From: Orbicella franksi
Taxonomy: Eukaryota
Direction of reading: 5' to 3'
DNA length: 64,000 nucleotides
NCBI GenBank assembly: GCA_964199315.1
Contig: OZ116701.1
Span: forward strand, 24,738,001-24,802,000
Shown here: positions 53,475-54,852 of the stretch, piece by piece
Position numbering within the stretch: position 1 is the first letter of the stretch
Layout of the letters: every line of letters starts with the position of its first letter
Notes under the pieces: generated by a model
What the model was told of the DNA's origin: nothing
The model's input: only the letters and a program-made list of their open reading frames with translations
Databases searched by the model: none
Translations under genes and position numbers: made by a program

Positions 53475-54423
53475 GTGAGTAATAATGTAACTTGTAATGT
53501 AAACTTGCTTTCCAATTTCGTTTGCTTCAAATGTTGAGTTTAAGCGCAGAGAGCCTTGAGAATTTTGAACGCCGACTGAAGCCGGTCAAAATGACCGGCA
53601 GTCTGATATTTTTCTCAAGGAAACCCATCCAAATCTACCTAGCGATCCAGAACTTTATAGATCGCAAGTCTAACGCTTGGTTCACGCTCGGCTCAGAAAA
53701 CAAGACCACAGTTTGTAGTAGATCTTTTTCAGTTCGACTGCAGGTCACGGTTTTTAAATCACTAAATGACCGGCAGTCCGATACTCGTGACAAATTTAAG
53801 GAATCAAACGAACCGATCCATGCGTTTGTGACAGCATGACAATTTTATTTTTGTTCAAGTAAGTTTCATATTTAAGCTATGTTAAGGGTAGAAGTTACAG
53901 CTTAAGGACGAAGCGATAATCGATCGTCACTGTAAACCAAAGATTAGACAGAGACCTCATTCACGTCTGCTACAAATTTCCCGCCACAAGCAAACGTCAT
54001 GCTTGACAGGAAATCAGAAATCAGCTTGGAAAATTTTTTTAGAAAAATGTCAGACTGCTGGTTATTTAGTGTGTTGAAAACCTTGACCGGCTGCCGGTTA
54101 TTTAGCCACAGCAAATTTTTCAAACGGTTTGCTAAACGTGTATTAAGGCGACAGTTAAACTTTTGCTGATCAGTAGCTGAAATACATCTTTATTCTCATA
54201 TCGTTTTCTCTGAATCTTTTCACCTTTCCTTACTAAAGGTATTTTTTTTTAATGTAAGCATTCGACAAGTTTGAAAATTTACGATTCAAAAACAGTTTGT
54301 ATACAGGTATTTTAACTTAGACACAACCTATACATGTCAGGTAAACCAATGTTAGGTAAACCATGTTAGGTAAACCAATTTTGCACCATGTAAAAAATTT
54401 AGTATATCGAAACTAACTGATGA

Positions 54424-54500
54424 TGGAGTGTATATGGAAACTAACTGATGAGTGGGCTAACTTTATGTTAGCGTACGAAACAGAGCTGTATTAAACTCCA
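54424..54500 (+). ncRNA. Type I hammerhead ribozyme motif (Penelope/retrozyme-like)
   Basis: CTGATGA 54445-54451; stem II GTGGGCTAAC/GTTAGCGTAC (9 of 10 pairs, loop TTTAT); GAAA 54477-54480; short near-palindromic stem III ACAGAGCTGT; GUA cleavage triplet ending 54490; stem I TAA/TTA plus TGGAGT/ACTCCA. Confidence 0.75.
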
Positions 54501-54852
54501 AATGTACTGAAGATCTGAGTAGTCTCTCAACATAATTGGTTAAAAAATTTAGTACGTTTTTTAGTAGAGAATTGCATGTAATGATGAAGAAATATTATCC
54601 AAATACACCAGTTGATCTAAGGGGGTGATTACATGGAGAATATCATCCCAGTTAAGGGTCCATTAACTGGTCTTTTCGAGCCATTGCTAAGGAAAATTAA
54701 TTCTCAAATAACCTCGCCATTTTTAGTTACTTCAGAGTTATTTCATGTGTTTTAGCTTTCTCATCATCTTGAAATGTGTTTAGTGATGCGCCTGTATTCT
54801 GTATGATATCAAGTTACTCAAAGATGCATTTAACAATTGCCTTACCCAGATA

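Follow-up and report, generated by a model that had tools for sequence, protein, structure and literature searches.

A hammerhead-bearing insert in the Orbicella franksi genome as a probable truncated copy of a Hydra-clade Penelope-like retrotransposon

Introduction

The Hydra clade groups C-terminal EN+ Penelope-like elements (PLEs) such as Hydra-1_Amil of the coral Acropora millepora. According to Craig et al. (2021, PMC8557442), its features are an endonuclease (EN) of the GIY-YIG type that is C-terminal and without CCHH, a CxCX5C linker, and CxxC and CxH motifs located around E/N. PLEs also carry hammerhead ribozymes with a small palindromic helix III, whose variants are mostly dispersed single motifs and have been ascribed to truncated PLEs (Cervera and de la Pena 2014, PMC4209133). 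In the Poseidon element PAc of Anolis, two internal start sites of reverse transcriptase (RT) have been demonstrated in vitro (Frangieh et al. 2024, PMC11167929). Hammerheads are also a component of the coral non-LTR retrozymes (Cervera and de la Pena 2020, PMC7229834).

Here, we analyse a stretch of 64,000 nucleotides of the Orbicella franksi genome (GCA_964199315.1, contig OZ116701.1, positions 24,738,001 to 24,802,000; hereafter the window, whose own coordinates are used). An earlier note, made from the sequence alone, had drawn attention to a 136-bp insert with a hammerhead ribozyme, flanked by a perfect 14-bp direct repeat. The insert is very probably a short 5'-truncated pLTR copy of a decayed Hydra-clade PLE, likely pasted by target-primed reverse transcription. 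It is a fossil of a known element class, and not a new ribozyme-driven element or a retrozyme. The idea of a retrotransposed copy with a Penelope-type hammerhead and palindromic stem III is retained from the earlier note, whereas that of a protein-free mini-element or retrozyme monomer is abandoned.

The insert and its hammerhead

The two copies of TAAAAAATTTAGTA, with a spacing of 150 nt and 136 bp enclosed, were found again where they had been reported (Table 1). The partial upstream duplicate was also recovered and corresponds to 54402-54423 versus 54430-54451, identical at 21 of 22 positions. By itself, such a repeat is not rare in the window, where exact 14-mers are repeated at 100-300 nt in 12 separate places, mostly tandem arrays. 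It therefore needs context, and becomes meaningful because its right copy begins at the fixed 3' end of the family described below.

Table 1. Features of the insert and its hammerhead motif, in window coordinates
Feature	Position	Strand	Remarks
Left target-site duplication (most likely)	54391..54404	+	14 bp, first bases TA
5'-junction extra element-derived piece	54405..54426	+	stem I 5' strand and core start partly duplicated; 1 substitution, 1 deletion
Family-homologous body	54427..54542	+	very probable 3' pLTR end of Hydra-clade Penelope-like element; starts at 5' edge of stem I, stops at the short 3' end (+51/+52 relative to predicted cut)
Hammerhead stem I, 5' strand	54427..54444	+	distal part of 12 bp, then AAC as internal loop (54439-54441), proximal part of 3 bp
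Catalytic core CUGAUGA (C3-A9)	54445..54451	+	intact
Stem II	54452..54476	+	10 bp, 54452-54461/54467-54476; UUUAU loop
GAAA core, stem III and GUA	54477..54490	+	GAAA 54477-54480; near-palindromic stem III ACAGAGCTGT 54480-54489; GTA with N17 at 54490
Stem I, 3' strand	54491..54508	+	T>A at 54501 in window copy, giving A.A mismatch
Right target-site duplication (most likely)	54541..54554	+	first TA overlaps the element's terminal TA

The left 14-mer ends in TTTAGTA, 7 nt that recur in the element immediately upstream of stem I, a possible case of microhomology. The extra piece at the 5' junction (54405..54426) likely derives from aborted or restarted synthesis or from later slippage; element-derived junction pieces are also present at two other loci, L002 and L014. 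Together, the extra piece of about 22 nt and the TTTAGTA match suggest microhomology joining, whose trace is indistinguishable from that of later slippage.

All the parts of the type I hammerhead core listed in the earlier note (CTGATGA, stem II, GAAA, stem III and GTA) are present as described. The near-palindrome ACAGAGCUGU sits between GAAA and the GUA that ends at 54490, and hammerhead numbering predicts a cut after this position. Stem I is longer than had been recognised, with 12 bp, a 3x3 internal loop and 3 bp. The copy had been suspected of being crippled on account of an interrupted stem I. The interruption is real, but it is not damage to the window copy: the 3x3 loop is family-wide, and most of it is paired in the sisters L034 and L039. 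The changes private to the window copy lie at 54473, 54501 and 54509. The first two break one pair each, in stems II and I respectively (C>G at 54473 produces a G.G mismatch, 54455/54473), and the core is intact. A second ribozyme starting from the upstream CTGATGA (54417-54441) was considered and rejected, as it has no stem II.

The segment 54420-54505 folds better than its shuffles (z -3.74), with 2 of 200 shuffles equally good. The hammerhead fold of the window copy reaches -15.8 kcal/mol versus -24 to -26.5 in the copies L006, L007 and L012, a difference due to the pairs broken by the mismatches at 54473 and 54501. In the predicted minimum free energy structure of the monomer, the core CUG is paired with stem III instead, and two stem III strands form a computed duplex of -11 kcal/mol. 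Both properties fit the dimer requirement and the low activity published for PLE hammerheads. In the parent RNA, cleavage by the hammerhead would probably require a dimer or the help of protein. Rfam searches at gathering score and at E<=10 returned zero hammerhead matches in the window copy; this result is uninformative because Rfam also found none in 7 loci, intact sister elements with clear motifs among them. Among six RNA runs, 0.33-0.64 of the words of the region were present, which is not evidence of expression.

When 24 family and 2 sister copies were aligned, 90.9% of cells were paired versus 23-43% in slid controls, and 5 of the 10 stem II pairs showed a double-sided change. Because the commonest of these (A-U to G-C) is a single subfamily change counted five times, the shuffle result of 0/500 overstates the support for pairing. 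The core is intact in 13 of the 24 family copies, including that of the window. A single copy without compensatory changes in stem II would have spoken against the hammerhead as first described; the motif is multi-copy and such changes are seen.

Genomic copies and the target-site duplication

A copy search in the 497-Mb genome, in which 40 of 45 candidates were scored, returned at least 43 matches to the family spanning 54427-54545 without the 14-mer. Among 42 matches to the 3' region, 34 stop at one of two fixed ends, a short end (14 matches; +51/+52 relative to the predicted cut, with a counting tolerance of +-1 nt) and a tail end (20 matches; about +109 to +113, by flank inspection), and 8 stop elsewhere. 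The window copy has the short end, on whose terminal TA the right 14-mer starts. The tail between the two ends measures about 60 nt in the window family (+52..+112) and also about 60 nt in the sister L031, whose short end is at +47. The tails of both start with a GCTC...GAGC-type motif.

The 14-mer of the window copy occurs in 1 of 30 loci. A 3'-end-anchored repeat of at least 9 bp (9-15 bp) was found in 7 of 22 loci, window included, versus 8 of 462 mismatched pairs (of the 30 loci, 8 were omitted: a duplicate, two that overlap as a pair, and five whose 3' ends are cut short). A repeat of 11-15 bp is carried by 4 of 11 further loci, retained from 20 after omission of 2 duplicates, 4 diverged sisters and 3 long copies with cut-short 3' ends. 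By analogy with these loci, the 14-bp repeat is most likely a target-site duplication (TSD) left by insertion. The earlier note had proposed either a TSD or terminal redundancy; the former is favoured and the latter dismissed, because the 14-mer is locus-specific while other short copies carry 9-15-bp repeats of their own.

It might be argued that the 14-mer is a product of chance, or of an unrelated local duplication next to an ordinary PLE fragment. The region is AT-rich, a small 3-copy tandem repeat of 14/15 bp (54333-54382) adjoins the left 14-mer upstream, and no empty site was seen in the contigs of four DNA runs. However, the right 14-mer begins exactly at the modal 3' TA of the family, and a repeat of at least 14 bp was obtained in a mere 2 of the 462 mismatched pairs, which leaves this explanation with almost no probability.

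Flank searches of the genome returned the window locus only, the flanks being single-copy. All four DNA runs considered, X2 and X14 (organism A), X7 (C) and X8 (D), contain the insert. They carry three organism labels; X2 may be the source sample, and coral metagenomes are among the public runs in which the region occurs. In X2, X7 and X8 the contigs bridge both junctions, in X14 the left one, and the contigs of X2, X7 and X8 across 54443-54747 carry the private bases of the window copy. No insert-skipping joint was seen in the contigs of these runs, contigs showing presence and not absence. Since the insert is in all four runs and no skipping joint was seen, the insertion appears to be fixed and to predate the separation of the three organism labels.

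The parent element

In longer copies, homology continues upstream via the 3' UTR into an open frame, which spans 217 aa in the L008 copy and 150 aa in that of L013. The L008 frame (L008:636-1286) contains a C-terminal GIY-YIG-like core (IIY...YVG) without intervening cysteines, in which R, H, E and N are conserved and CCHH is missing. It also has a CxCX5C linker (CNCRKKDQC) together with CDLC (CxxC) and CQH (CxH), the last two flanking the conserved E and N. The atlas neighbours of this endonuclease frame are GIY-YIG clusters (0.95-0.97). Pfam gave zero matches for the family frames (L008), with a sub-threshold GIY-YIG match (E 0.0055) for the ORF of the sister L031, and zero RT matches; a PDB search with a sister ORF gave 0 matches.

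At L038, an RT fragment, thumb, EN and hammerhead share one strand, with RT upstream of EN. A 2.1-kb insertion interrupts them, and the DNA is 89-93% identical to L037/L008. The RT fragment, with motifs FDVVEFYPS, RDD and NFLD, is 49% identical to an intact sister ORF; it is interrupted and partly deleted, the motif 4 region being missing. Its atlas neighbours are RVT_1/HTH_animal clusters (0.91-0.95), and comparison by eye reveals long identical runs with Hydra-1_Amil as given in the supplement of PMC8557442. The hammerhead is linked to EN and RT coding sequence in these longer copies, so that the insert does not belong to the tiny protein-free retroelement first supposed. A Naiad/selenoprotein reading was rejected as EN is C-terminal.

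No intact ORF of the window family was found, the longest open frame being 217 aa. Sister families, about 50-53% identical, have open frames of up to 754 aa with RWK, DKT and YRDD motifs and 3' hammerheads of their own. RWK and DKT were seen in the sister families only, and no recovered copy of the window family extends that far. The sister L032 has the organisation pLTR-ORF-pLTR, with a hammerhead in each repeat. Many intact Hydra-clade ORFs of 711-754 aa are present in the genome (scores cover 150 of 947 candidates). They frequently form inverted pairs and share identical scores, which suggests that sister Hydra-clade families were recently active.

These data bear on the alternative offered in the earlier note, that of a 150-bp monomer with terminal redundancy, here understood as a retrozyme unit that would have been copied from a circular RNA. 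A type I hammerhead with palindromic stem III would suit a retrozyme, coral retrozymes exist (PMC7229834), and half of the 14-bp repeat (7 bases) agrees with element sequence upstream of stem I. The 14-mer is nevertheless missing from the other 29 loci, and family sequence past both ends is unlike it. Moreover, 0 of 30 loci have a direct second copy within 1.5 kb, so that the tandem arrays that were to be looked for did not appear, and the 11 exact core matches are all dispersed; known coral retrozymes are tandem units of 220-245 bp (PMC7229834). The EN and RT sequences upstream in longer copies also run against the absence of a coding link expected of a retrozyme. This alternative is largely refuted, and we give it next to no weight.

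The truncated Hydra-clade PLE copy is in keeping with the arrangement of the other loci. A second arm is present in 6 of 30 loci and is always inverted; inverted second arms, with none direct, are the PLE insertion pattern. Indeed, the copies display the insertion structure of EN+ PLEs: 5' truncation, inverted arms, optional 3' tail and variable TSD. Hammerhead stubs in fold-back arrangement occur at L032:3253-3422 and L007:1014-1184, where those from one PLE family lie inside or beside the copy of another family. L004/L005 and L015 occupy nearly the same ATGTTGTAAAT site of what appears to be the same repeat, in opposite orientation, and a target preference is a possible explanation for this shared site.

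5' ends of the copies

The 5' starts were tabulated for 43 arms from hand-entered BLAST ends, with two rough placeholders for copies reaching RT and flanks judged by eye. They are distributed as follows: 14 downstream of -59, 12 at -59..-84, 0 at -85..-157 and 17 at -158 or further up. With the window excluded, 11 of the 22 arms between -59 and -345 fall within 26 nt (scan P 0.00015 under a uniform null, 0.025 and 0.23 under exponential nulls). The cluster alone is thus insignificant under the steep exponential null, and 3 of its 12 arms are inversion junctions; the peak and the empty gap together were obtained in 0 of 20,000 simulations under all three nulls. The cluster just upstream of the ribozyme is likely to mark the RNA 5' end. 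In the simplest reading, the RNA would begin just upstream of the ribozyme, and internally primed RT would run off that end through an uncut hammerhead.

Three independent arms (L049/L051/L052, L053 and L059) start at +4/+5 past the predicted cut, one of them at a fold-back junction. In vivo cleavage was considered as their origin and set aside, kept as a lead, the density of these 3 arms being not clearly above that of their neighbours.

Could the short copies instead form a non-autonomous, SINE-like or proto-retrozyme family? In that case a pLTR-only RNA would have been transcribed and, without dependence on a full-length parent RNA, mobilised by Hydra-clade proteins acting in trans. Short copies do dominate, 26 of the 43 arms starting at -84 or downstream of it, and the 5' ends of the short copies are clustered. 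Intact ORFs are numerous in sister families, whereas none was found for the parent, and a preprint argues that animal retrozymes derive from PLE pLTRs (bioRxiv 10.64898/2026.07.22.740005). Nevertheless, sequence variants and the two 3' ends are common to short and long copies, 17 of the 43 arms extend to -158 or beyond, entering the 3' UTR, EN and RT, and run-off at the 5' end of the parent RNA accounts for the cluster without any separate element. A family of this kind is therefore very unlikely.

A proposed insertion pathway

For the truncated PLE copy, the following sequence of events may be envisaged. The GIY-YIG endonuclease of the element would nick an AT-rich site at TA. RT would then prime inside the RNA at the proximal (+51/+52) of two start sites, the distal one, at about +112, adding a tail of about 60 nt. 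The cDNA would cross the uncut ribozyme and stop close to the RNA 5' end, at a point that is probably some 60-85 nt upstream of the cut. Short microhomologies would join the 5' junction and leave the partial duplicate of about 22 nt. The copy would since then have been an inert fossil with two stem mismatches.

Taken as a whole, the family might even map the Hydra-clade RNA: transcription would start about 85 nt upstream of the cut, RT would prime at +52 or +112 (giving a tail of about 60 nt, longer than described), pLTR-only run-off copies would spread by themselves as a SINE-like intermediate on the way from PLE to retrozyme, and the three +4/+5 arms would be copies of RNA cut in vivo. This joint reading is tentative and, in its entirety, rather improbable.

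A single fossil copy is of little importance. The family, on the other hand, is a small, checkable record of Hydra-clade PLE insertion: its two fixed 3' ends, separated by about 60 nt, agree with what internal priming predicts, and its 5' ends accumulate just before an uncut hammerhead. This record bears on the role of the ribozyme in PLE transposition. In practice, where a TSD-flanked hammerhead is met in an animal genome, a PLE parent should be sought before the sequence is called a retrozyme.

Neighbourhood of the insert

The reverse strand at 49259-52972 holds an apparently intact open frame of 1236 aa with weak Transposase_21 and zf-BED Pfam matches, presumably DNA-transposon-like. On the forward strand, 57268-59662 encodes a Baculo_FP_2nd domain followed by Exo_endo_phos (Pfam), which we take to be the likely 5' part of a LINE. 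Other dispersed repeats, at 54652-54768 (high-copy) and 54064-54112, flank the insertion site, and a hairpin with 45-nt arms lies at 55970-56074. Just 3' of the insert, 54575-54636 forms a hairpin with a C-box-like ATGATGA and an imperfect D box; its Rfam match to snoR31 (E 0.11, far below the gathering score) is probably due to chance.

Comparison with known systems

An incomplete literature search, covering the supplement of PMC8557442 by term only, found no description of the window family or of a Hydra tail of about 60 nt, and supplements may already list either. A term search of the text of that supplement, in which long sequence runs are cut, did not find the 14-nt DNA motif of the window hammerhead.

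The closest described relatives are the Hydra-clade elements such as Hydra-1_Amil (Craig et al. 2021, PMC8557442), with which the window family shares GIY-YIG without CCHH, the CxCX5C, CxxC and CxH motifs and a pLTR hammerhead, as well as TA-rich targets, inverted truncated arms and an optional tail. It differs in that the family seems decayed, the window holding about 116 bp of the element, and in the tail of about 60 nt, also seen in the sister L031, versus the 30-40 bp stated for PLEs in the same source.

With the PLE hammerheads described by Cervera and de la Pena (2014, PMC4209133), the window family has in common a long helix II, a palindromic helix III suited to dimer folding, and the dispersal of single motifs. 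Compared with the variants reported there, its hammerhead has a longer helix I (12+3 bp, 3x3 loop), a 10-bp helix II and no unpaired base between A9 and G10.1.

The coral non-LTR retrozymes (Cervera and de la Pena 2020, PMC7229834) likewise combine a type I hammerhead with a small AT-rich repeat in a coral genome. However, they form head-to-tail arrays of 220-245 bp that give circular RNA, whereas the window family is dispersed, without direct tandem copies, and joined to coding sequence.

PAc of Anolis (Frangieh et al. 2024, PMC11167929) offers the nearest parallel for the ends of the copies: two fixed 3' ends split by a tail, copies across an uncut hammerhead, and AT-rich targets. The two fixed 3' ends of the window family match the two internal RT start sites of PAc. 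PAc nevertheless belongs to another clade, its ORF start overlaps the ribozyme, and its mechanism was established in vitro, whereas that of the window family is deduced from the genomic copies.
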